DNA of 32,000 nt from Chlamydiota bacterium (GTDB lineage: Bacteria > Auribacterota > JACPWU01). The stretch lies in contig JACPWU010000054.1 of the NCBI GenBank assembly GCA_016196885.1, positions 1 to 32,000 of the forward strand. Reading direction: 5' to 3'. The translations under genes and the position numbers were made by a program. The notes under the pieces were generated by a model. It did no database searches. It was given only the letters and a program-made list of their open reading frames with translations, and was not told the origin of the DNA. Shown piece after piece: positions 5,965 to 28,397 of the stretch (position 1 is the first letter of the stretch; each line of letters starts with the position of its first letter).

Positions 5965-7389
5965 TCACTGGCAAGAATCCATCAGTTCACCTGCAAGAAT
6001 TGTTTTATAAAAGTAACCGGAATGGAGAAGGTCCTCGGTAGGCCTTGTTTTCGTGATCAAAATTTTTTGAAGGGTTTTCTTTGTTCTTTTTTGAATCAAC
6101 TCTACCTTTTTCTGTGTTTCGGCCATCACACTTTTCCCAGGACGCGACGCGGTGTATTTCATTTCGCATAAACACAGGACTTTATCTGCACGGTCAAATA
6201 AAAGATCAATCTGAATGCCGGATTGCGATCTTTTACCGTGCAACTCAAAATAAGGTCCACAGGTAAAATCAATTCCGGAAAACCCTAAAATCTCAGCAAT
6301 TTTTTTGGCATGATCCACGCATACATACTCAAAAGATCGTCCCAGCCAAGAAGAGAATGATGAGGTTTGAGTGATACGGCTAAAGAGGTCATCCAAGTTA
6401 TTTTCAATTTTACGAAGCGTGGGTTCAATGAATGAGAAATAAAATCTTAAATAGGCATCCGAAAGACAATACACAATATGGCGGCTCTTGGGACCTTTGT
6501 TAAAAGGTCGGTAGGAGCGAATAAATCCAGCCGTCTCCAAATCGTAAAGCAGGGCCGACAGTCCTCCGCCTGCCTGGATCCGCGTTTTCTTGGAAAGGGT
6601 GCTTCTCGCAAGACCATAGGGGGATTGAGCCAGGCACTCGACGATTTTACGATAATCAGGATTTTTCCCAAAGTGTGATACAAAGATGCGATCGTACTCT
6701 CCAACAAAATAGCCATTGGATTTAAATCCGAGATTTTGCATGCCCAAAAGAATAGAGGGTTCTCGCTTCAGAAGTTCGAGGTATTTTGGAACGCCTCCCA
6801 CCATCATTTGGGCCAAGAAAATTTCATCCTCTGATTTTCCAGTTAAAAAGAGTTTTGTTTCATTTAAAGAAAAGGGTTTAAGGTGGATGATTAAATCCGA
6901 GCGACCAAAAAGGGCCTTCGACTTAACGACTTTCTTGATCATAAAGGAAGCAATAGAACCGCAGAGAATCAAGTGTACCGCAGACGCCCGACTCAAGTAT
7001 TGTTCCCAAACCATTTTCAAATCAGAGATAATCTCCGTGCGATCATTGGCCATCCACTGGAACTCATCAAACACCAAGGTCACAGGCTCTTGACACACAG
7101 GGATCAGCTCTTTAAAAACCTCTCGCCAGGGGCTAGATCCAGAAAAGGGCCGAGGTTGACTTTTCGTTTGAAAGAACAATTGTGAGAGAAAATTTTGGAT
7201 CTGATGGGATTTCCCTTGATTCTCTAAGCCTTCAAAAAAGTAGGCCCGCTGACCCGTCAGTGCTTCTTGAATCAGCGCGGTTTTTCCAATGCGCCTTCTT
7301 CCATAAATGATGGACAGTGTCGGCTTTTTTTGATGAATTTGGGATCGAAGGGCCTGAATCTCGGCCTCCCGAGCAATGAACGGACGCAC
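5965..7389 (-). CDS. AAA+ ATPase of the archaeal-ATPase / DUF234 type
   Basis: It has the P-loop GRRRIGKT and a Walker B-like LVFDEF. The C-terminal region has the DAYLRFYFSFIEP pattern typical of DUF234 proteins. It uses a GTG start preceded by AAGGA. Confidence 0.85.
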   Translation of the reverse strand: MRPFIAREAEIQALRSQIHQKKPTLSIIYGRRRIGKTALIQEALTGQRAYFFEGLENQGKSHQIQNFLSQLFFQTKSQPRPFSGSSPWREVFKELIPVCQEPVTLVFDEFQWMANDRTEIISDLKMVWEQYLSRASAVHLILCGSIASFMIKKVVKSKALFGRSDLIIHLKPFSLNETKLFLTGKSEDEIFLAQMMVGGVPKYLELLKREPSILLGMQNLGFKSNGYFVGEYDRIFVSHFGKNPDYRKIVECLAQSPYGLARSTLSKKTRIQAGGGLSALLYDLETAGFIRSYRPFNKGPKSRHIVYCLSDAYLRFYFSFIEPTLRKIENNLDDLFSRITQTSSFSSWLGRSFEYVCVDHAKKIAEILGFSGIDFTCGPYFELHGKRSQSGIQIDLLFDRADKVLCLCEMKYTASRPGKSVMAETQKKVELIQKRTKKTLQKILITKTRPTEDLLHSGYFYKTILAGELMDSCQ

Positions 7390-17953: not shown

Positions 17954-18618
17954 ATGACTGATATGAACTTTCATCGAATTCTCGATCTTCAACAATTATT
18001 GAAAAAAAAGTCTTTTTTCCTTTTTCTCGATTTCTAAAAGCAGCGGCTCTTTCTGTAGGGCAACCCCTCAACCTGACACAGATTGGCAGTGACTGCCAAG
18101 TTCCTCCCTCTACAGTGAGAGAACATTATTCGATTCTTGAAGACACCTTGGTGGGTTTTTTTTTAGAGCCCTGGACACGATCTCAAAAAAGAAAAGCTGC
18201 TCAGACGGCTAAATTCTACTTCTTCGATTTGGGCGTTACACACACATTAACTGGAACAAAGACCCTGGATCGTAACTCGAACCTTTATGGGATGAGCTTT
18301 GAGCAGTTTATTGGGATGGAGCTACGCGCCTATTTAAGTTATCATAGACTCAAGGAACCCTTATCTTTTTGGCGTTCCCTTCATGGTTACGAAGTTGATT
18401 TCGTGATAGGAGACCATACAGCCATTGAGGTCAAGGCCACACAACGTGTTTCACAACACGACATGAAGGGCCTCAAAATGTTGAGAGAAGAGGCTGTTTT
18501 TAAAGAATATTATCTGGTAAGTCAAGATCCTATTGAGATAAAAAAAGAAGGGATGACTCTCATTTATTGGGAGAATTTTTTGAAGAGACTTTGGGAAGAC
18601 CAGGTGTTTTCAATTTGA
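17954..18618 (+). pseudogene. AAA_14/DUF4143-type ATPase with the AAA core deleted
   Basis: The N-terminal peptide MTDMNFHRILDLQQLLKKKSFFLF stops at 18033-18035. A second frame then continues FSRFLKAAALSVGQPLNLTQIGSDCQVPPSTVREHYSILEDTLVGFFLEPW... to the normal C-terminus at 18618. The P-loop domain that normally lies between these two parts is missing. Confidence 0.75.
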
Positions 18619-18703: not shown

Positions 18704-21700
18704 TTACATCGAACGCTGTGCGGCTTCGTTTCTTTGGATCATCTTATCGAGTGTTCTTAATGGAAGTTCCAGGCTGGGATGTGTCTTGAGACTAATCCCA
18801 TTTTCAGGATTGTCAATCTCTGCCAGTAATGCGGCCTTCTTTTCAGGATCTGTTACCAATCTCTCAATCAGAGCCCTATAATCTTCAGGCGATTGAGCGG
18901 CCACCAACATCTGGGCTAAAGTGACCTGGGCATTACCCAAGACCAGGCGTTTACGGCATTCTGCATTTTCACCATACTCTTGGCTCTTCTCAAGAGATCC
19001 CAAAACAATAACATGTTCTAGATCTGACAACTCATCCGCTTGCAAAAAGTTCTCTAACGCATAGGAGGATGTTGGCCTGACCCTGTAACGATCCCTCAAA
19101 TCATCCAGGTTAAATCTCTTTTTTACTGGATCCATCTCGCCCTCGTGAGAGACAACGAAGGTCACATAAACCTCTTTAGGCAGTCTTTGCAAAATTTCGA
19201 GAAGCTCTAGGCCATCTTGTTCCATCACGAGACGCACATCGATTAAAATGTGAAAATTTTCTTTCGAGCTGATACCCTTCATAAATGGATCCTTCTTGAC
19301 AATGCTTGCTTTTACGTTCGCGATGTCTTGGACCCACGCCGCTTGCCTTCCGTCCACAATCAGGCCAGCCAAATCATCGGTGAGCTTAGCTGCTGCGGCA
19401 GAATCCATGCCCTTTGAGCGAATGCGAGCGTTTAAAGCTCCTCCCACAACTTCAAGAATACGACGGACGCTCCCACCTCCTTGTAAATAACGCGAACGAT
19501 ATTCTGGATCGTCCAGGAACTGATTTAGATCAAACGAACGACTCGGGCGATTTCGTTTTCCTGTTGTGCCTCTTCTCTGAGAAGAAGATTTCTTCCCTTC
19601 AGATCTTGGAAGCGCGGGGACAGGTAAATCAAAAACAAACTGAGCACTCGTCCACTCGTTCATCGTGATCCAATACTCAGCAAAGGAACTGCGGGTGGTT
19701 CCCAGATGGATGGGCTTGGATGCTGCCGGTGCGTCTCCCAAAGAGAGAAGCGTCCACAAATCTGCCGGTCTTTTTTCCCAAAATTTCAAGCGTTCTCGTC
19801 TGTTTTCTCTTCTGAACCGTTTCAGGGCTTCGTGAGGTCTCTCATTCAGAGCTAAAGAGGCTTCTCCCGAACTCAAAGGGTCTCGCGCAAGCAAGTTTTG
19901 CGCCATCAAATCGTAATAAACACCCCATGAATCAGGCCTGGAAAATCTGGCTCCCAAGATAGTCTCTACTTCTAGCTCTTGACGCACTTGGGCCTCTGTC
20001 GGATTTTCTGAAGGAGATTTCAAGAGAGAGATGAGATTGGGTCTGTCTTCGGGTGATTGAAGGAGGGCGATTAAAATCGCGAGACGTGTATAAGGCTCCT
20101 CTGGTCTAAGAGAGCCGCTTTTGATTTGTTCTTGGACTGCCTGAGAAAGCTTTTGTGAATAAAATCTTCTTACGAGGTTTTGATAAAGATCATCCTCCCC
20201 ATGAGTGGTCCCATATAAATCCATGGCCACGACAAGCCCCGCAGAAATCAAAACACTGGATTTGGGTGAGAAAGAAGCACTCAGCGTTTCGCTACTGGTC
20301 TCCGTTATTCTATAGCGAGGATGAAATAATCTATGGGTATCTCCATCCATCCTATCGAAGGTTGAAAGAATTTTTTTAATCATTTTTTGAGCTTCTTGAA
20401 ATGAAATCTTCTCCAAACGCTGACGCTGGGCGATCGTCAAGAGACTTAAGCCCAAGTCTTCTGAGGATATCTCAAGACCCACTCGCAGACCCGTCTCATT
20501 GAAGGAGGCATCAAACCAGGCTTTAAACTGCTCCCACCCCTTATCATATTCTTTGTTGCAATAAGCGACCTCTTTTGGAGAGAGTGGAGCGGGTGTTTCA
20601 ACGTGGTCAGTGGGTGCAGGGACAGGGGCTGCTTGTTCACTCTGCGCTGCTGGTGCTGTTGCTTCCTCGCGTGGTACAGCAGGAGGTGAAACCGCTGGGG
20701 CAGCAGGGACAGGGGGGGGTTCTGCAGGAGCTGCAGGTACAGGAACAGAAGGTAATACTGAACCTGTTGTTCCTACCCCTGCTGGACTGGGATCTAATAG
20801 ACGTCTGAGACCTAACCCTCTTGCGTCTTTATGTTCTCCTGTCCAAAATCTATTCCAGAACTGATCAGGTGTTGTGAATGCTTGTTGTGCACTGAAGAGC
20901 GCATCTGAGAGAGCCATGAACGTCCATAAGGGATCAGAAGGGGCGTATCCATTTCTTTTGAGGCGATCAAGCACCTCATCCCCTGCGAAACGTAATGCCA
21001 GGGCACTGTCTTGTGGCTTTGTCGCAAGCCAAGGGGTGGCTATTTGTTGATCGTACTCATCCCACCGAGCTTCGAGTCCGCTGAGTCTGAGAAGAAGATC
21101 TATTTCCAACTCTTGGCGCTGGACATCGTTTGGAGGGTTTGCTAGAGGGGGCCTCAATTGTGTAATCAGACCTAGGTCGAACTCGTCTGCTTGAAGAACA
21201 GCCAACAAAATGCAAAGACGTCCATAAGGCTCTTCGCCGAGATGGGGATTTGTTTTGAGTAACTCTAATGTAGCTGTGTGAAAGTCCATTGAATGAAACA
21301 GTTCTTTAAGAGCTTGATAAGTAGGATCTTTTGCATAACCTGGATCATTTTCCCTGAGAAACTCCATGGCAACGACAAGTCCATAAGCGGCTAAGCCATT
21401 GGACCTGACTGTAGCAAGAGCTCCTTCTTGTTTCACCCCTTCTATTACCATCGCAGTGGTACCTTTTTCTGCTGTCATGGTGTACACATCGTACAAAAGG
21501 CCGTTAGGGGCTTTTTCACTGAAGCTTAAATCGTCAACGATCCCCTGAATCATTTCTTTAGCTTCTTCTAAAGAAATGGCAAGTGTAGAATTGAGACTGG
21601 CTGGTTCCACAGAAAGAGCGTAAGCTTGTGTAATGGCTACAAGGTCTAAGCCAAGCGTCCCGGGCTTTACTGGATTACCTGCGTTGGTGACATGGGTTAC

Positions 21701-24700
21701 AGGATCGCGTGTAGTTTTAATAGATTGGATAACAGTTTCCCATCTTTTAGGAAGCTCAGTTCTAAAGAAGGCCAAATTCCCTTCGTTGAGGGTAACGCCC
21801 TGCGAAGTGGATTTTTTCTCAGGCTTTGGGCCTATTTCGACCCTTGCCCCTGGGGTTGTCCCTCGATCGGCTCTTTTTAGTTCGATAGCATGAGGTACAA
21901 GGGTCAAGTTAGCCGACCCTGTCCAGGCGGGACGAACTGTCAAAGGGTCATACGCGTCCAGGTTGCCGGCACCGATCTCGATGCTTGCCCTTCCGAGCCG
22001 AGGATGAACCCGAGAGTAACGCACGGACGCAGTCCCACGAAAGCGACCTCTTGAGGAGGCATCGCCGCCGACCGAAAGAAGCCATTCTCCTCCTAGTCCT
22101 ACGAGGGTGGCATTGGATTCGAAAAAGACGCGCACGCCTTGGGAAGGAGAAAAGGAATTTGTCAACCGGCCATGTTCTCCTGGAGATGAAATGGTGGCGA
22201 CAGTGTCCCAAGAAAATAGATCAACTACAGTACCTGCTTTCAAAGCCCAGGAAGCAAGAGGGCCTCTACTAGGTGAGTAATCCGCCATATTCAAATAAAG
22301 CCGAATGTCGGTGAGGGGTTCACCTACAGCGTTCAAGATTAAGGTATCTCCACTTTGAGTCCCCTCTAAATAATACCCCCCGCCTCCATAAAGTTCATCT
22401 AGAAAACCTCTTTGAAAGGCTGTGTCGGGATTTCCTGAATGGGCTGCCCACTGCTGAACAGCGGTTTGCAAAAGGGGATCCGGTAAAAAAGCAGTTTTCA
22501 AGTGAAACGTTATAGGTCCCCCTATTAGTTGAGCATGCAATGCGAGTGTGCTGGGGGGAAGAGGCGAACCGTAGACACGAAGAGGATTGACCGGTTGGTA
22601 AAATACGGCTGCGATAGGATCCAGACGGAACCAAGCGCCATTGATAATGGGATTCAGTCTAAACTCCGCCCCTCCTGAAGGGCGAATCATCCATGTTCCA
22701 TCAGGGGTGGCCAATGCTTGGATCCCGAGCCTTATCTTGGCTCGCCCAAAGGATCGAAGGCCATACACATAACCCATGTAAAGGGGATTGTTTTTATATA
22801 ATTCCCAAAGGGTCAAGTCTTGTGCTCTGAGATAGTTAGGATCGGCAAAGGCTTCCACTAAATCGGGGTCTACATAGGTATTGATCCGACCTCCTCCGCC
22901 AAGAAAGACCCAGTTTCCGTAGTTTGCTGATAAGTGGCCTGAATCTACCCCCAAGGTTCCGTATTGGAAGAAGGCAGAGGGGGTTATCTCTCTTGGTATT
23001 TCGGGGGCTGAAGAGACTGCAGGAGTAAGAGGCACTTCTGAAGCGGGTGGTGGTGTCACAGGTTCTGCTCCTTGAGCCAGGGCTAAATGGGACATGAAAA
23101 GCAGGGTCAGAGCAAGGACTGCTCGAGAGAATCTCGGCATGCGTTTTAGAAAACGAGAAGTTAAAGGAAGAATAGAAACGAGGGCAACAGGAATTGCAAA
23201 AATAGAATAGGAAGAATTAAAAGCAAGTAAAGATAAAGTAGCAAAGCCCAAAATACTGAAAAATGAAAATTTCAAAAATCTGAAATTCCAAAACTGAGTT
23301 CCCACTGGGCTTCCGTAACTGCCTCCTCTTGAGGATTCGCTCTTAGGTTTGGCTGATGAATCTTCAGCTTTGAGAGGGGCTTCGTCTGGGATTACATCAG
23401 CGGTGAGATTATCATAGACCACTGAACCACTGTCATAAGAACTCAAGAAACCTATTTGGTAAGGCCTATAGCCCGCAGGTGTTTGTACAATCTGTGTTGA
23501 TTTTAATTCATCATCTACATAAAAACGTACGGTATTGTTACCTTGATCGAGAGGATCCGGAACAATCTCCAACCTTACCTGATACGCAACATTGTATTGT
23601 AAATCCGATGGAACACCTTCATCAGGACCTCCTGAGTCTTCCACAGCGTAGTGTGTCGGATCAGCATAGAGATTGACATATTTCAAATTTGATACATTGG
23701 AAGGATCGGCATATACGACGACAAACGCACTCTGATTCGCGTTGTTGAAGGTAACTTGATATTCAAATTGAAAAGAACTATCTAGATCAATGAATCCTAA
23801 ATCATTTCGATTCATTGCCGCGGAATATCCGACTGTTGAAGAGTCTCCATCTTCTGTGACTGTAAGTGTACCGTCTGATGGAATGGACCAAGTAGTATTT
23901 CCATTATTACCGTTTTCATCATAGATCACTTCCCATCCTCCCCCCAATAAATCATCGAATGATTCATAGCCGTTAAAATCTTCTGAGTAAAAATGGGTGT
24001 CTGGGCCAGGAGTTGGGGTTACTTCAGTAGGCGTCGGAGTAACTTCAGGCGTTCCAGCAGGTGTTGGAGAAGCTTCAGGCGTTCCAGCGGGTGTTGGAGA
24101 AACTTCAGGCGTTCCAGCAGGCGTCGGAGAAGGTTCAGGCGTTGGTGTGACAACCACAGGCGTAGGGCTTGGAGCTTCACTAGGTTCAGGTGTCTGTGTA
24201 GCTGAAGGTGTAGGAGCTTCAGTAGAAGTAGGCGTCGGAGTAACCTCAGGTGTGGGACTTTCTCCAGCAGGTGTAGGAGAAACCCCGGGCGTCGGAGAAA
24301 CCTCAGGAGTCACAGCAGGCGTTGGAGAAACCTCTATCGGTGTGGGGGATCCACTGATGGGCAGGGGTGTAGCTCCTGGAAACTCTGTTTCAAAGCAACC
24401 CATGAAAGAAGCAAGACTCATTGCAATTAAGAGAACGATGCTCGCGGGGAGCACTCTTGAGAGCACACGCAAAAAACTCCCTCCTTGAGAAGGTGTAGAA
24501 GGTACTTCCTTCGGGAAGAGTCGATCGAGCACGTTCTCTAAGGGTTCCGTATATCCATCACGTATTAATACTCGGGTCAGATATCTCTCGGTTAAAGCAC
24601 GTCGGCTTTCATCGTTATCGTTCAACAATGCAAGAATTTCGTCAGCATTCTCAAACTCAGTGATGGTTAGAAATTGATTGAGATCAAGTGTGGGAAGTAC

Positions 24701-26596
24701 GCCTTCGGCGGAAGCGGGCTCTAATTCTCGGCTTTCCAATTCGCGAAGCACAGACTCAAGGTCGCTGACGGCTTCAATGGCTGCTTGAGTATTCCCCAAC
24801 CCCTGCTGCCAATCTGCAAAAAGTTTAGCGTGATTCCAGTTTGAGGCCTCAATCATTTCTCGGCCCATTTGTCCTGTCGTTTGCATCCCCAGCAAATGAA
24901 GGCGTGCGATCTTGAGTAATGTGGGCAAAGGTGCTGTTTTCAAGGCGCCTGGGGCACCTCCTAATAAGCCAAACAGTTCCTCCATTTTTCTAAAATAAAG
25001 ACTTCGATCATCGGGATGACTCACGCGAGGGCTGATGATCCAGTAGCCGATTTTGGCTTCTTTGAGCAATTCTTTGAGGCCGGAAGTATGAAAACCTCCA
25101 GCAACCAAGGCCGCATGGTTGATTTTTTTCTCAGAGATCAGAGCGAGAGATTTATCCAGAAAGATGTGATCGCGTTCAAGCACTTTTTCGTAGAATTTTG
25201 CGGCCGTTTTGAAAACATCCCCAAAATCAGGGGATTCGAAAGCCGTTGTTCGTTGCTCGTCCTTCGTCGCTCGTAGATACAAAGTTTTGAGTTTGGCAAC
25301 AAATTCTGTGACGAAACGGTTTCCGGTACGATCTACGGACGACGAGTGACGATAGACGGCTTCAATATCTTCCCGCTTTCCTTCGAGTCGCGCAACCCGG
25401 TCGAGAATTGCATAATTTTTCTGAATCTCTATCAATTCTCTTTCCTGATCATTTTGGATGAGGGCTTGAGTTAATTCTTCTTCGGCCTCTTTCATTTCAC
25501 CGTCTAATTTTTCCCATGAAAGATTTTTCATGAGATTCATTTGGTCCATGAGAAGTTTGAGATTTTGAAAGGTCGAACTTCCATTTTCCATACGATTCAT
25601 GTATTGGCTCAAATAAAGATAATGTTCTTGATCGCTCACTTGCCCCAGGCGATATTCCAGGACATGCCTTAAAAGGCTTGTGGATTCTTCCTTGGGGAGT
25701 TTGGCTTCAAGAATCTCTAGGAAGTGAAGGTATTCCTTTTCCAGGGCTTCTGGATTCACTTGCGATTCTAATTGAACCAGATCGGCATAATTTTTTAGAG
25801 TTGGATAAGGGGTGGAGACATCCTTGCCGAATGTTTCCTTATACTGCTGGGATAATTCTTTAAAATAGGTCTGAATATCTGTTCTCGTCTCTCGGTACTG
25901 CTTTACTTTGCTCATCCAGTCGTACATTCCTTTAGAGAAAACCTTTTTCTCAAGTGCTTCAATCATCTCTTTCGAGGTTTGCCAGGCCTGTTCCTGAAGG
26001 GTGTTTTCCTCCAAAGATTTTCCCATGGCGTCAATATTGTCTACATAAACGGATAAATCTTCGATTCCGAGACCCTGTGCCTTGTCAGGTCCTTCGGTGA
26101 TGAGAAAGGATTCCACGGCGTCAATATCGCTTCTCTGAAGAAATTTCTCTTGAGCGATTTGAAGCGCCTTTTTGTCTGGAAAGGTATCGAAAAAGGACAT
26201 GTCCATGCGGCCTTCAGCGGCCTCTGAGAAAACATAAAAGAGGGAATTGGGATTGGAAGATGGATGCGCACGTGAAACTGTTTTTAAAATGCCTCGTATA
26301 TGGGCTTGTGCTTCTGGATTGCAGTGAATATCTTCAATAATGAACAATACGGGACGATCCTGAAAAACATTTTTTTCGACCACTTCTCCAAAATCACTCG
26401 GAATTTTTAAATGATCCAAAGCTGCACCGAACTCTTCTGAAGGCCTCTGAAGATTCCAATCGCTCCTTTGAATGGGGGAGGATTTGGACACAGTCTGGGC
26501 TATGTTTGCATCTTGTGCAAAGGTGAAACTACAATCGTGGGTGATAAAGGAAAGACAGACAACAAGGCTGATGATTTGACGCGCAATTTTGAACAT
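18704..26596 (-). CDS. Giant multi-module exported protein (2630 aa), possibly three fused cistrons
   Basis: One uninterrupted ORF. GGAGGG lies 4 nt before ATG 26596, followed by an N-terminal signal peptide. It has internal signal-peptide-like segments at about aa 709-734 and 1153-1175, a Pro/Thr linker, a jelly-roll-like region, a beta-rich region, two paralogous modules and a Pro/Ala linker. See the findings for detail. Confidence 0.8.
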   Translation of the reverse strand: MFKIARQIISLVVCLSFITHDCSFTFAQDANIAQTVSKSSPIQRSDWNLQRPSEEFGAALDHLKIPSDFGEVVEKNVFQDRPVLFIIEDIHCNPEAQAHIRGILKTVSRAHPSSNPNSLFYVFSEAAEGRMDMSFFDTFPDKKALQIAQEKFLQRSDIDAVESFLITEGPDKAQGLGIEDLSVYVDNIDAMGKSLEENTLQEQAWQTSKEMIEALEKKVFSKGMYDWMSKVKQYRETRTDIQTYFKELSQQYKETFGKDVSTPYPTLKNYADLVQLESQVNPEALEKEYLHFLEILEAKLPKEESTSLLRHVLEYRLGQVSDQEHYLYLSQYMNRMENGSSTFQNLKLLMDQMNLMKNLSWEKLDGEMKEAEEELTQALIQNDQERELIEIQKNYAILDRVARLEGKREDIEAVYRHSSSVDRTGNRFVTEFVAKLKTLYLRATKDEQRTTAFESPDFGDVFKTAAKFYEKVLERDHIFLDKSLALISEKKINHAALVAGGFHTSGLKELLKEAKIGYWIISPRVSHPDDRSLYFRKMEELFGLLGGAPGALKTAPLPTLLKIARLHLLGMQTTGQMGREMIEASNWNHAKLFADWQQGLGNTQAAIEAVSDLESVLRELESRELEPASAEGVLPTLDLNQFLTITEFENADEILALLNDNDESRRALTERYLTRVLIRDGYTEPLENVLDRLFPKEVPSTPSQGGSFLRVLSRVLPASIVLLIAMSLASFMGCFETEFPGATPLPISGSPTPIEVSPTPAVTPEVSPTPGVSPTPAGESPTPEVTPTPTSTEAPTPSATQTPEPSEAPSPTPVVVTPTPEPSPTPAGTPEVSPTPAGTPEASPTPAGTPEVTPTPTEVTPTPGPDTHFYSEDFNGYESFDDLLGGGWEVIYDENGNNGNTTWSIPSDGTLTVTEDGDSSTVGYSAAMNRNDLGFIDLDSSFQFEYQVTFNNANQSAFVVVYADPSNVSNLKYVNLYADPTHYAVEDSGGPDEGVPSDLQYNVAYQVRLEIVPDPLDQGNNTVRFYVDDELKSTQIVQTPAGYRPYQIGFLSSYDSGSVVYDNLTADVIPDEAPLKAEDSSAKPKSESSRGGSYGSPVGTQFWNFRFLKFSFFSILGFATLSLLAFNSSYSIFAIPVALVSILPLTSRFLKRMPRFSRAVLALTLLFMSHLALAQGAEPVTPPPASEVPLTPAVSSAPEIPREITPSAFFQYGTLGVDSGHLSANYGNWVFLGGGGRINTYVDPDLVEAFADPNYLRAQDLTLWELYKNNPLYMGYVYGLRSFGRAKIRLGIQALATPDGTWMIRPSGGAEFRLNPIINGAWFRLDPIAAVFYQPVNPLRVYGSPLPPSTLALHAQLIGGPITFHLKTAFLPDPLLQTAVQQWAAHSGNPDTAFQRGFLDELYGGGGYYLEGTQSGDTLILNAVGEPLTDIRLYLNMADYSPSRGPLASWALKAGTVVDLFSWDTVATISSPGEHGRLTNSFSPSQGVRVFFESNATLVGLGGEWLLSVGGDASSRGRFRGTASVRYSRVHPRLGRASIEIGAGNLDAYDPLTVRPAWTGSANLTLVPHAIELKRADRGTTPGARVEIGPKPEKKSTSQGVTLNEGNLAFFRTELPKRWETVIQSIKTTRDPVTHVTNAGNPVKPGTLGLDLVAITQAYALSVEPASLNSTLAISLEEAKEMIQGIVDDLSFSEKAPNGLLYDVYTMTAEKGTTAMVIEGVKQEGALATVRSNGLAAYGLVVAMEFLRENDPGYAKDPTYQALKELFHSMDFHTATLELLKTNPHLGEEPYGRLCILLAVLQADEFDLGLITQLRPPLANPPNDVQRQELEIDLLLRLSGLEARWDEYDQQIATPWLATKPQDSALALRFAGDEVLDRLKRNGYAPSDPLWTFMALSDALFSAQQAFTTPDQFWNRFWTGEHKDARGLGLRRLLDPSPAGVGTTGSVLPSVPVPAAPAEPPPVPAAPAVSPPAVPREEATAPAAQSEQAAPVPAPTDHVETPAPLSPKEVAYCNKEYDKGWEQFKAWFDASFNETGLRVGLEISSEDLGLSLLTIAQRQRLEKISFQEAQKMIKKILSTFDRMDGDTHRLFHPRYRITETSSETLSASFSPKSSVLISAGLVVAMDLYGTTHGEDDLYQNLVRRFYSQKLSQAVQEQIKSGSLRPEEPYTRLAILIALLQSPEDRPNLISLLKSPSENPTEAQVRQELEVETILGARFSRPDSWGVYYDLMAQNLLARDPLSSGEASLALNERPHEALKRFRRENRRERLKFWEKRPADLWTLLSLGDAPAASKPIHLGTTRSSFAEYWITMNEWTSAQFVFDLPVPALPRSEGKKSSSQRRGTTGKRNRPSRSFDLNQFLDDPEYRSRYLQGGGSVRRILEVVGGALNARIRSKGMDSAAAAKLTDDLAGLIVDGRQAAWVQDIANVKASIVKKDPFMKGISSKENFHILIDVRLVMEQDGLELLEILQRLPKEVYVTFVVSHEGEMDPVKKRFNLDDLRDRYRVRPTSSYALENFLQADELSDLEHVIVLGSLEKSQEYGENAECRKRLVLGNAQVTLAQMLVAAQSPEDYRALIERLVTDPEKKAALLAEIDNPENGISLKTHPSLELPLRTLDKMIQRNEAAQRSM
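24048..24137. repeat. 30-bp tandem repeat x3 inside the giant ORF (encodes PTPAGTPE[V/A]S units)
   Basis: The units GGCGTTCCAGCAGGTGTTGGAGAAGCTTCA, GGCGTTCCAGCGGGTGTTGGAGAAACTTCA and GGCGTTCCAGCAGGCGTCGGAGAAGGTTCA lie head to tail. More diverged units surround them across about 23995-24360. Confidence 0.85.
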
Positions 26597-26794
26597 ATTC
26601 CCTCCTCAGGGTAACAATTTATAACGAAAATGGGTGCGGAGAAAAAGACACTCCGGGCTAGAAATAGCCTACAGACGGAAGACACTTCTTGGCCTAAAAA
26701 GGTCAAAATAAATGAGGTTCAAAGAGTGAGGGATAGGGAACCTCTTCCTGCTAAAGGGGTTTTGGAACGAGGATTTTGAGTAAAAAGAGGTTAT

Positions 26795-27181: not shown

Positions 27182-27728
27182 TCACTTCTTTGTTGTTGCA
27201 CTCGCAGTCGTGGCCGTATCTACGTTTGTATTTGTTGAAGAAGTTTTTTGTTTCTGAGCTGAAGCAACTGATAACGTATTTGCACTGACCCACTTAATAT
27301 TTTTTAAATTGGGATTGTATTGTAGAGGAGCAGGTTTCAGCAAAGTCGCTGAAGATGTTTTGGTAGAACTTGTCTTTCCTGTAGAAACGGCTTGTTGAGT
27401 CGTTTTGCTGTTGGTTTGAGTTTTTTTAGTTTGTGGTGTTTTTGAAGAACTGGTTTTTGAAGATTCTTGAGAGGTTATTTTCTGTGCGGATGCATTTTGA
27501 GTAGAGACTGCGTGCCAATCTACATTTTGATAGGCAGGTTTTAAATTGAGAGCGGGTTTTTTTGCCTGTGGAGGTTGAATAACAGGAATCTTTGTTTGTC
27601 CAGAAGCAGGTGTTTCAGTGCTATGGGGTGCAGATGAAGAAGATTGTGAGGACATCTGGTTTAGAGCATTCCAATCCACAGAATTTGAGTGTGTTTGAGA
27701 AGATGAACTTTGAGATGTATTGCTGGGG
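27182..27728 (-). CDS. S/T/Q/K-rich low-complexity segment with repeated [SN][VI][DK]W motif; probably the frameshifted C-terminal continuation of the beta-trefoil ORF
   Basis: The track ORF 27182-27904 looks like real coding sequence only from about HPSNTSQSSSS onward. It carries the motifs SVDWNAL, NVDWHAV and NIKWVSA. A related RSDWENR motif occurs in the other frame upstream. Confidence 0.5.
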
Positions 27729-28397
27729 TGCTGGCGCCGTTTGCGTTCTAGAATTTTCAGGAGGGCGAGAAGAAGAGGGGGCAGCGGGCTCTCGTCTGGG
27801 GGCAGAAGAGGGCTGTTCATCTCGAGCTGGACGATTCTCCCAATCAGAACGGGCGGTTGTTCGAGCCTGAAGAATGGGATGCAATCTAAATGTTTCCCAG
27901 ACATCGGCAGAGGTGTTGATTGCCCCTAAGTAACTGTCATTTCCAATCCCCGCGCGGACATATCTGCCCAAGGCGATCGATCGAAACGCCACTTTGTCAT
28001 CTCCCAGTTGGCGCAGTTCAAAAGTTTGTTCTTCTGCGATGTTTGAACTTAAAGCCATTACATCAAAATTAGGGATGTTGTAGCTGATGGAAGCGTACTT
28101 ATTGCTTTTGACGGATTGAAGAGCGACTTTGCGATTCCCCAAATCAACCAAGCGAAATGCCTCCCAAATTTGAAGGTGGGAACTGGCGGCGCCGAGCCTT
28201 GATTTTTCTCCGAGGCCTGCTCGGACGTATTTCCCAGTTTTAATGGATTGAAAAGCAACTTTCCCGTCTCCCAGCATGTGGATTTTAAAACCCTCCCAAA
28301 GATGAAGATGAGGACTGACGGCACCCAAATAGCACCCGATGAAATCAATGCCCGCTCGCACATAGCGTCCATTGGAGACAGATTGTATGCCGATCAT
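27621..28397 (-). CDS. Beta-trefoil (fascin-like repeat) protein; true 5' boundary unclear
   Basis: It has four tandem ~45-aa units of the form G[KR]YVRAG..LGA.....WE.F.L..LG..KVA.QS. The repeat pattern continues upstream of ATG 28397 (to 28541) in the same frame, where there is no ATG/GTG/TTG. The last ~30 codons before the stop at 27621 look non-coding. Confidence 0.6.
   Translation of the reverse strand: MIGIQSVSNGRYVRAGIDFIGCYLGAVSPHLHLWEGFKIHMLGDGKVAFQSIKTGKYVRAGLGEKSRLGAASSHLQIWEAFRLVDLGNRKVALQSVKSNKYASISYNIPNFDVMALSSNIAEEQTFELRQLGDDKVAFRSIALGRYVRAGIGNDSYLGAINTSADVWETFRLHPILQARTTARSDWENRPARDEQPSSAPRREPAAPSSSRPPENSRTQTAPAPQQYISKFIFSNTLKFCGLECSKPDVLTIFFICTP

Follow-up and report, generated by a model that had tools for sequence, protein, structure and literature searches.

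A glycine linker and internal membrane segment that probably mimic a gene start within a giant Chlamydiota envelope protein

The locus

The stretch of DNA analysed here, referred to as the window, comprises positions 1 to 32,000 of contig JACPWU010000054.1, from a metagenome-assembled genome (MAG) of a Chlamydiota bacterium. Its minus strand carries a giant open reading frame (ORF) of 2630 amino acids (aa), and well inside that ORF lies a site with the look of a junction between two genes of an operon: a Shine-Dalgarno (SD)-like string, a candidate TTG start codon and a peptide resembling a lipoprotein signal. As discussed in more detail below, the site is probably a Gly-Gly linker, read in frame, and a membrane segment that together connect two modules of a single giant envelope protein, and would be the anciently fused equivalent of a junction that separates two genes in relatives. 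The features of the ORF are as follows (TM, transmembrane segment).

18704-26596, minus strand: giant ORF, 2630 aa, putative modular envelope protein; no Pfam domain
26597-26607, minus strand: the real SD sequence of the giant ORF, GAGGAGGGAAT, before the ATG at 26596-26594
24473-26596, minus strand: aa 1-708, with a Sec-type signal peptide (aa 1-28), the N-domain core (as far as about aa 545) and, beyond it, a tail specific to the clade (aa 546-708)
24479-24487, minus strand: CAA GGA GGG, Gln704-Gly705-Gly706 (CAA at 24487-24485), in the Gly-rich linker that aligns with PPSGGG of paralogs
24470-24472, minus strand: TTG, Leu709, the proposed internal start codon, in frame
24395-24469, minus strand: aa 710-734, signal-peptide-like internal hydrophobic segment (TM1) with a lipobox-type end, SFMG-C734
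23987-24394, minus strand: aa 735-870, acidic linker rich in Pro, Thr and Ser, including a tandem repeat of four 30-nucleotide (nt) copies
23327-23986, minus strand: aa 871-1090, orphan module with no homolog detected at E<=0.01
23069-23278, minus strand: aa 1107-1176, three hydrophobic segments (TM2-TM4)
18707-19270, minus strand: aa 2443-2630, weak match to the C-terminal domain of paralogs, ending in ...RSM

An identical 2630-aa protein is annotated by NCBI as MAG hypothetical protein HYS08_04965 of a Chlamydiae bacterium (GCA_016178005.1). A Pfam search with the whole ORF returned nothing at E<=0.1, a self-BLAST found no internal duplication, and a homolog search with the middle module (aa 860-1100) gave none at E<=0.01.

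The sequence facts on which the original prediction was built (the CAA codon, the SD-like string, the TTG, the lipobox Cys and their positions) were all correct when re-read from the minus strand. The sequence ...CCT TCT CAA GGA GGG AGT TTT TTG CGT GTG CTC TCA AGA GTG... runs in frame, and CAA GGA GGG AGT TTT TTG are codons 704-709 of the 2630-aa ORF. The SD-like string AAGGAGGG occupies 24486-24479 and ends 6 nt before TTG709; counted from its GGAGG core the spacing is 7 nt. Both values fall within the 5-10 nt upstream of ATG, GTG or TTG by which we define an SD-plus-start pair. Read from codon 709, the peptide has two Arg, then a hydrophobic core, then SFMG-C, the Cys734 codon being TGC at 24397-24395.

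Prolipoprotein signal peptides of bacteria are processed by the Lgt/LspA pathway and are described by the PROSITE PS51257 rule. The segment here shares with them an n-region with positive charges (R710, R714), a hydrophobic core and the SFMG-C lipobox. An expression in the style of that rule, {DERK}(6)-[LIVMFWSTAG](2)-[LIVMFYSTAGCQ]-[AGS]-C, accepts the peptide LRVLSRVLPASIVLLIAMSLASFMG-C, and the matching string, IAMSLASFMGC, with Cys734 as its last residue, is the sole match in the 2630-aa protein. Despite this likeness, the Cys is residue 734 of an annotated and conserved ORF rather than one of the first 35 or so, outside the distance of about 15-35 residues from the N-terminus, behind an n-region with K or R, that a lipoprotein calls for, and it would face the cytoplasm in the topology given below. 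It would be residue 26 only if the candidate TTG709 were the start.

The junction in paralogs

The CAA codon was of particular concern, as the original prediction had raised the possibilities of a base-call error for TAA and of a recent stop-loss fusion. The Logan assembly contig of SRR12113387 is 100% identical in DNA sequence over all 7893 nt of the ORF plus flanks, CAA included; because this independent assembly reads the same, an assembly error is unlikely. A recent stop loss fares no better. BLAST alignments to three paralogs, P0002, P0004 and P0005 (37-49% identity), cross codon 709 in frame through a conserved PSxGG junction, and in none of the three does the homologous position hold a stop codon and two genes, so the fused state is evidently old.

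In the multiple alignment, KEVPST-PSQGGS-FLRVLSRVLPASIVLLIAMSLASFMGC of the query protein is paired with EEPPQFPPSGGG-IVSAIRNSGAGNWMVLLALLPWLWMTAC. The linker PSQGGS lies opposite PPSGGG of the paralogs, Gln704 is matched by Ser or Gly codons and never by stops, and a hydrophobic segment follows, complete with the lipobox Cys in P0002 and P0004. At the same place the hydrophobic segment of P0005 ends in VKA/QQ, in the manner of a signal-peptidase-I site, and P0003 and P0006 have TM segments; these last three proteins have no Cys at the position equivalent to Cys734. Nearly all members of the Chlamydiota clade have a TM right after the N-domain, and the alignments indicate that the Gly-Gly linker with its hydrophobic segment is an old in-frame feature of this clade. 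It is not a feature of the family as a whole: a hydrophobic segment stands at the post-N-domain position in 26 of the 136 top members with enough sequence to judge.

The candidate start codon is less constant than the linker. The DNA of P0002 reads TCA GGT GGA GGC ATT GTA, with GGAGG present and the start codon absent, and that of P0004 reads TCA GGT GGA GGA ATC ATG. AGGA-ATG is found in both, the main ATG being lost in P0002. With ATG in one and GTA in the other, the start codon is not conserved even between these two orthologs.

The original prediction held the SD-like string to be as strong as any in the window, and it is: GGAGG lies upstream of only 2 of 18 long ORF starts, one of them the start of the giant ORF itself. 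The frequency of such strings, though, is not above chance, AAGGAGG occurring 10 times in the window with 6.8 +/- 2.5 expected (14 of 100 shuffles reach 10). The giant ORF has 16 sense GGAGG strings, 13 of which are frame-0 GGA-GGN, that is, Gly-Gly codon pairs, and a 4-nt SD core precedes 14 of its 137 in-frame ATG, GTG and TTG codons. The combination seen at codon 709 is not confined to that site either; a second GGAGG followed after 7 nt by an in-frame GTG is present at aa 886/890, and paralog P0002 has three in-frame cases of GGAGG plus start. The part that is not random is the signal-peptide-like hydrophobic segment behind the string, and this is owed to the architecture of the protein.

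The N-domain family

Most of what can be said about the giant ORF comes from its N-terminal part. Searching by word index with the whole ORF gave 27 homologs of 1871-4548 aa, all 27 of which match only query residues ~1-550/800, and do so at their own N-terminus. With aa 1-708 as the query, exhaustive searching by phmmer yielded 5937 representatives of 50% identity clusters at E<=1e-3, 3372 of them at <=1e-10, in proteins from 514 to 6910 aa; here too the matches always start near the N-terminus. Compared with 116 cluster representatives, the N-domain gave E values from 1e-177 to 1e-30, again always N-terminal. The query protein itself has the Sec-type signal peptide and the N-domain, with its DxH...E...GGFHT motifs, at its very N-terminus, and residues D89, H91, Q97, E125, G500, G501 and H503 are invariant.

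The domain has no relative in Pfam, among PDB sequences or in Foldseek-PDB, and its profile gave nothing meaningful against PDB sequences. An AlphaFold2 (AF2) model of moderate confidence (pLDDT 73.8) has an alpha/beta core into which a large helical region is inserted. Judged from these matches, the ~550-aa N-domain defines a very large, uncharacterised and unannotated family of giant proteins, with hosts in Chlamydiota, Omnitrophota and Elusimicrobiota.

What follows the N-domain is variable. Isocitrate lyase/malate synthase, Maf, phosphoglucomutase, glutamate dehydrogenase and kinases are all represented among the cargo domains. Enzymes of central metabolism recur, whether fused to the N-domain or encoded beside it (P0003, P0007, P0011, P0018 and P0022; loci L005, L006, L007 and L010), with AceK, a faint PGI match and a GAPDH-like protein as further examples. 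Some of this cargo sits behind signal peptides, which is odd for enzymes that are normally cytoplasmic. By eye, the paralogs' TM modules carry a CPBP/CAAX protease-like pattern (EExxF...HxxxN), an identity that found no Pfam support and was set aside.

The C-terminal ends are more uniform. Among long members, 69 of 110 end in a small/hydrophobic pair (e.g. ...SAA, ...QAA, ...RSL), a pattern that was defined after the tails had been inspected and has a background of 5%. The complete Chlamydiota paralogs all end in xSM, xNM or xYM (TSM/LSM/LYM/KNM), and the query ends in RSM. The family ending (18707-18800, minus strand, in the window) may be a sorting or degradation tag.

Relatives with two genes

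Several relatives encode the same arrangement as two genes. A cluster of matches of 514-550 aa ends just past the core N-domain. Two complete genes, P0043 and P0096, encode classic cleavable signal peptides, and downstream of each stands a separate gene with a signal peptide of its own. Across the split loci, the cargo gene begins with its own signal peptide in 2 of 5; in two others the downstream genes have none. A 111-nt spacer containing AAGGAGATAAAGGA separates the two genes in L005. At the L007/L008 junction, from a distant relative, the sequence is TTA GGA GAA AAA TAA aaaag ATG, followed by MKSKAVNTLLSIATSSILCLTQAIWA, a signal peptide. GGAG lies close to the stop, and 5 nt separate the stop from ATG; an SD beside a stop and ahead of a signal peptide, as pictured in the original prediction, is found at real junctions of this family.

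A further example comes from the same MAG as the window (L006, JACOUD010000023.1), where P0033 (646 aa) is joined through an ATGA overlap to an AceK-like gene that ends in ...RAKNM, and another family member follows. Upstream of the AceK-like gene its frame stays open for just 27 nt, which identifies the junction as real and speaks against a frameshift. The third gene of this tandem (L006 2638-10578) exceeds 2500 aa and has His_Phos_1 and ARMT1-like domains. At another locus, L013, family members lie beside a gene for 17,792 aa.

None of these split points coincides with the query site. The relatives are divided after about aa 515-550 of the core or, in P0033, at aa 646; the P0033 tail is not similar to query residues 546-708. 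The likeness to a gene junction noted in the original prediction is sound in an evolutionary sense, the family existing in both fused and split forms with real junctions in L006 and L007, and does not extend to a boundary in the query itself. The probable reason for the likeness to an operon junction is that in relatives the same unit is divided between two genes, one for the signal peptide plus N-domain and one for the cargo.

Topology and internal signal-like segments

Membrane topology was assigned by a simple charge count rather than by a trained prediction method. The N-terminal Sec signal peptide, running from in to out, should export the N-domain, so that TM1 would act as a stop-transfer segment, passing from out to in, and leave Cys734 inside together with residues 735-1106. 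TM2 and TM3 then lead to an inside TM3-TM4 loop of charge +5, and TM4 runs from in to out. The count as a whole is self-consistent for a single chain, and on this basis Cys734 is inferred to lie on the cytoplasmic face.

A second internal signal-peptide-like segment, MPRFSRAVLALTLLFMSHLALAQG/AEP (aa 1153-1176; 23069-23140, minus strand), lies after the +5 loop. It corresponds to TM4 read from Met1153, with an ALAQG/AEP site and no SD upstream. Since TM4 is N-in/C-out by the charge count, as signal peptidase I needs, it would be a better candidate for internal cleavage than the Cys734 site.

Segments of the lipoprotein type are present elsewhere in the family. P0159 (aa 1195-1221, L013) has a textbook internal example, ...FRAKGLGNLLRLLVACMFFAVMG-CSSQ, and P0166 (aa 940-965, L014) another, ...RSRASRRFDLWSWILPIWLILGGGLVG-CGG. 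Both sit within continuous ORFs of 2.3-2.6 kaa and are not preceded by clear internal start signals. An SD plus start is absent from P0166 Cys965 and from a further segment of the lipoprotein type at P0159 Cys793, and P0159 Cys1221 has a marginal AAGGA-9 nt-TTG.

Interpretation of the site

Members of the family share one plan, with a Sec signal peptide, a ~550-aa N-domain, then variable cargo divided up by hydrophobic segments, and a C-terminus typical of the family. In the clade of the query, the N-domain and the next module are joined by a linker rich in Gly, PSQGGS here and PPSGGG in paralogs, and GGA GGG would be no more than the Gly-Gly codons of that linker. Leu, Val and Met abound in signal-peptide-like segments, so in-frame TTG and GTG a few bases after GGAGG are to be expected as a by-product. 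TM1 would most likely serve as an internal membrane anchor that passes from outside to inside with the N-domain exported. The query could then be the ancient fusion of a two-gene pair, or the split forms could be fissions of a fused state. Codon 709 most likely marks no gene boundary and no working start site.

Several results weigh against this interpretation. Searches of JGI metagenome contigs and GTDB representative genomes found no true ortholog of the junction region, only Pro/Thr-rich low-complexity matches, so the comparison at CAA rests on paralogs. In 3 of 4 Chlamydiota genes the post-N-domain segment has an SD-like 4-mer with an in-frame start at its N-edge, and among other hydrophobic segments the figure is 1 of 28 (Fisher p=0.003). 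The Gly-rich linker, the orthology of P0002 and P0004 and the choice of windows after the data were seen all confound this test; the background rate is 8-10% of windows. This enrichment is suggestive of more than a pure by-product. The lipobox pattern is also rare in the family, with 15 occurrences in 391,699 residues, four of them on the post-N-domain segment (p=0.029, weakening to p=0.12 with orthologs collapsed); these include the homologous position of P0002 and P0004 and the post-N-domain segment of the distant P0159. With R711 and R715 upstream of TM1 and E736 and E738 downstream of it, the flanking charges speak for a signal-peptide-like N-in/C-out orientation, opposite to the one proposed here. 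Finally, the C-terminal features of the family show weakly in the query: a profile of the ~250 C-terminal residues of paralogs matches it colinearly and weakly (3.7 bits), hhalign of the paralog C-domain with the query C-terminus gives E=9e-4 at a probability of 23%, and a C-tail profile from distant members gave no signal on the query or on Chlamydiota tails.

The idea of a nested internal initiation site, also put forward in the original prediction, accommodates some of these points. Initiation at TTG709 (or GTG711) through AAGGAGGG would yield an extra prolipoprotein of ~1920 aa beside the full-length product, an old junction having been kept in working order. The SD is strong, the 6-7 nt spacing is suitable, and the lipobox rule is satisfied if TTG709 is the start. 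The homologous DNA of P0004 reads GGAGGA-ATC-ATG, from which MSALRNSGAGNWMVLFALLPWLWMTA-C would be translated, the excess of SD plus start at the junction points the same way, N-domain and cargo can be separate proteins in split relatives, and in-frame internal starts are documented in bacteria (10.1101/520783). However, P0002, the ortholog of P0004, has no start codon at the homologous site, and the internal lipobox segments of P0159 and P0166 do without an SD plus start or have a marginal one. The motif itself is at chance level and stems from Gly-Gly codons, TTG is a weak start codon, and elongating ribosomes would be expected to compete with initiation at codon 709. Moreover, in a product started there and with TM1 N-in/C-out, the +5 TM3-TM4 loop would end up outside and TM4 would be reversed. 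The SD, the spacing and the lipobox peptide were well observed; we nevertheless consider nested initiation unlikely, given the unconserved start and the topology.

Cleavage of the full-length chain would produce a similar outcome by another route. Here TM1 would insert in the manner of a lipoprotein signal peptide, Lgt would lipidate Cys734 and LspA would cut before it, freeing the N-domain from a lipid-anchored remainder. That the only lipobox match in 2630 aa falls at Cys734, with matches at the homologous site of P0002 and P0004 and on the P0159 segment, agrees with such processing, as do the charges around TM1 and the textbook signals at P0166 Cys965 and P0159 Cys1221. Split relatives show that the parts can work without a covalent link, and cleavage of giant TM-rich proteins is an open question (10.1101/2023.11.21.568195). 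On the other hand, an exported N-domain makes TM1 a stop-transfer segment with Cys734 inside, in agreement with TM2-TM4, the lipobox enrichment is weak once orthologs are collapsed, P0005, P0003 and P0006 have no Cys at the equivalent position, and our literature search found no bacterial precedent for internal lipobox processing. Processing at Cys734 is therefore held to be very unlikely. Taken together, that this one 7.9-kb ORF gives rise to an exported N-domain protein and a lipid-anchored remainder of ~1900 aa, whether by initiation at TTG709 or by Lgt/LspA at Cys734, would seem a rather small chance from the sequence data. If it did, the internal lipoprotein signal peptides of P0002/P0004, P0159 and P0166 would mark a general cutting of bacterial giant proteins by ordinary signal peptidases.

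There is also the matter of whether the region really is two genes, in which case the CAA would be a sequencing or assembly error in place of TAA, or the stop would have been lost in this strain. Replacing one C by T would give TAAGGAGG, split relatives do have real junctions of this kind, and JGI contigs and GTDB representatives hold no ortholog of the junction to set against the CAA. Yet the independent Logan assembly has identical DNA, paralogs are in frame at the homologous junction with Ser or Gly codons opposite Gln704, and the split points of relatives lie elsewhere (about aa 515-550, or aa 646 in P0033), which makes an artefact or very recent event extremely improbable. An in-frame linker and membrane anchor within one chain remains the reading we prefer.

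Relation to known systems

Giant proteins of Omnitrophota and related phyla have been described as multi-kiloresidue chains with an N-terminal signal peptide and many internal TMs, embedded metabolic-enzyme domains (e.g. phosphoglucomutase) and large unannotated stretches, their cleavage being left open (10.1101/2023.11.21.568195; 10.64898/2026.06.07.730766). One of these papers, a 2026 preprint, expressly dismisses signal-peptide calls at internal positions as artefacts (10.64898/2026.06.07.730766). Such proteins from Omnitrophota and Elusimicrobiota are the distant homologs of the N-domain of the query, which differs in its smaller size (2630 aa), its origin in a Chlamydiota MAG and its lack of any recognisable Pfam domain. 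The N-domain family is not described in those papers (10.1101/2023.11.21.568195; 10.64898/2026.06.07.730766).

The SD-like string has its own parallel in SD-like sequences of coding regions, where a hexamer complementary to the anti-SD arises from ordinary codons without a role in initiation (PMC5100845), as GGA GGN for Gly-Gly does here. While such motifs are generally depleted in coding regions (PMC5100845), the query uses GGA-GGN freely, 13 times in frame, and one instance precedes a hydrophobic segment. In-frame internal starts that give N-terminally truncated isoforms likewise place an SD and a start within a longer ORF, ahead of a distinct module (10.1101/520783); the query site differs in being a candidate predicted from sequence, with a start that is not conserved in P0002/P0004. 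Internal signal-peptide-like segments between modules of one long product are familiar from viral polyproteins, but those are eukaryotic systems of the endoplasmic reticulum with demonstrated signal-peptidase cleavage (PMC3113308, PMC7926653). No counterpart in bacteria turned up in our literature search.

In itself the proposed start signal is of little importance. What it illustrates is that Gly-Gly codons followed by a hydrophobic segment can mimic a perfect gene start, and that such ORFs should not be split, by gene callers or by human readers, without comparative evidence. Of more value is the large unannotated family of apparent giant envelope proteins, fused and split, across Chlamydiota, Omnitrophota and Elusimicrobiota. 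Several members have internal peptides of the lipoprotein or signal-peptidase-I type, and should any of them really be cleaved, the open question of single chain versus polyprotein for bacterial giant proteins would be answered.

Other features of the window

The tandem repeat in the acidic linker (24025-24143) has four 30-nt copies with 86% matches and encodes a Pro/Thr linker of the SPTPAGTPEV type. A spurious 163-aa ORF on the plus strand (23997-24488), which overlaps the site, exists because the antisense strand of the repeat is free of stops.

The window is ordinary chromosome, with genes for an ABC-F ATPase, a DEAD-box helicase, a ZIP transporter, an RND efflux operon, MsrB and cytochrome bd oxidase. 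Two ORFs of 240 and 258 aa, at 27182-27904 and 27621-28397 on the minus strand, lie in different frames and share about 280 nt. A DUF7910/ricin-like match was obtained for the upstream ORF and none for the other, and the overlap may reflect a frameshift or a miscalled start. Genes for AAA_14/DUF4143 ATPases, or a DUF4143 fragment, adjoin the giant genes, both in the window (18115-18618, plus strand; 5965-7389, minus strand) and in three paralogous loci of two Chlamydiota MAGs (L003 817-1989, L004 2078-3331 and L006 248-1468).

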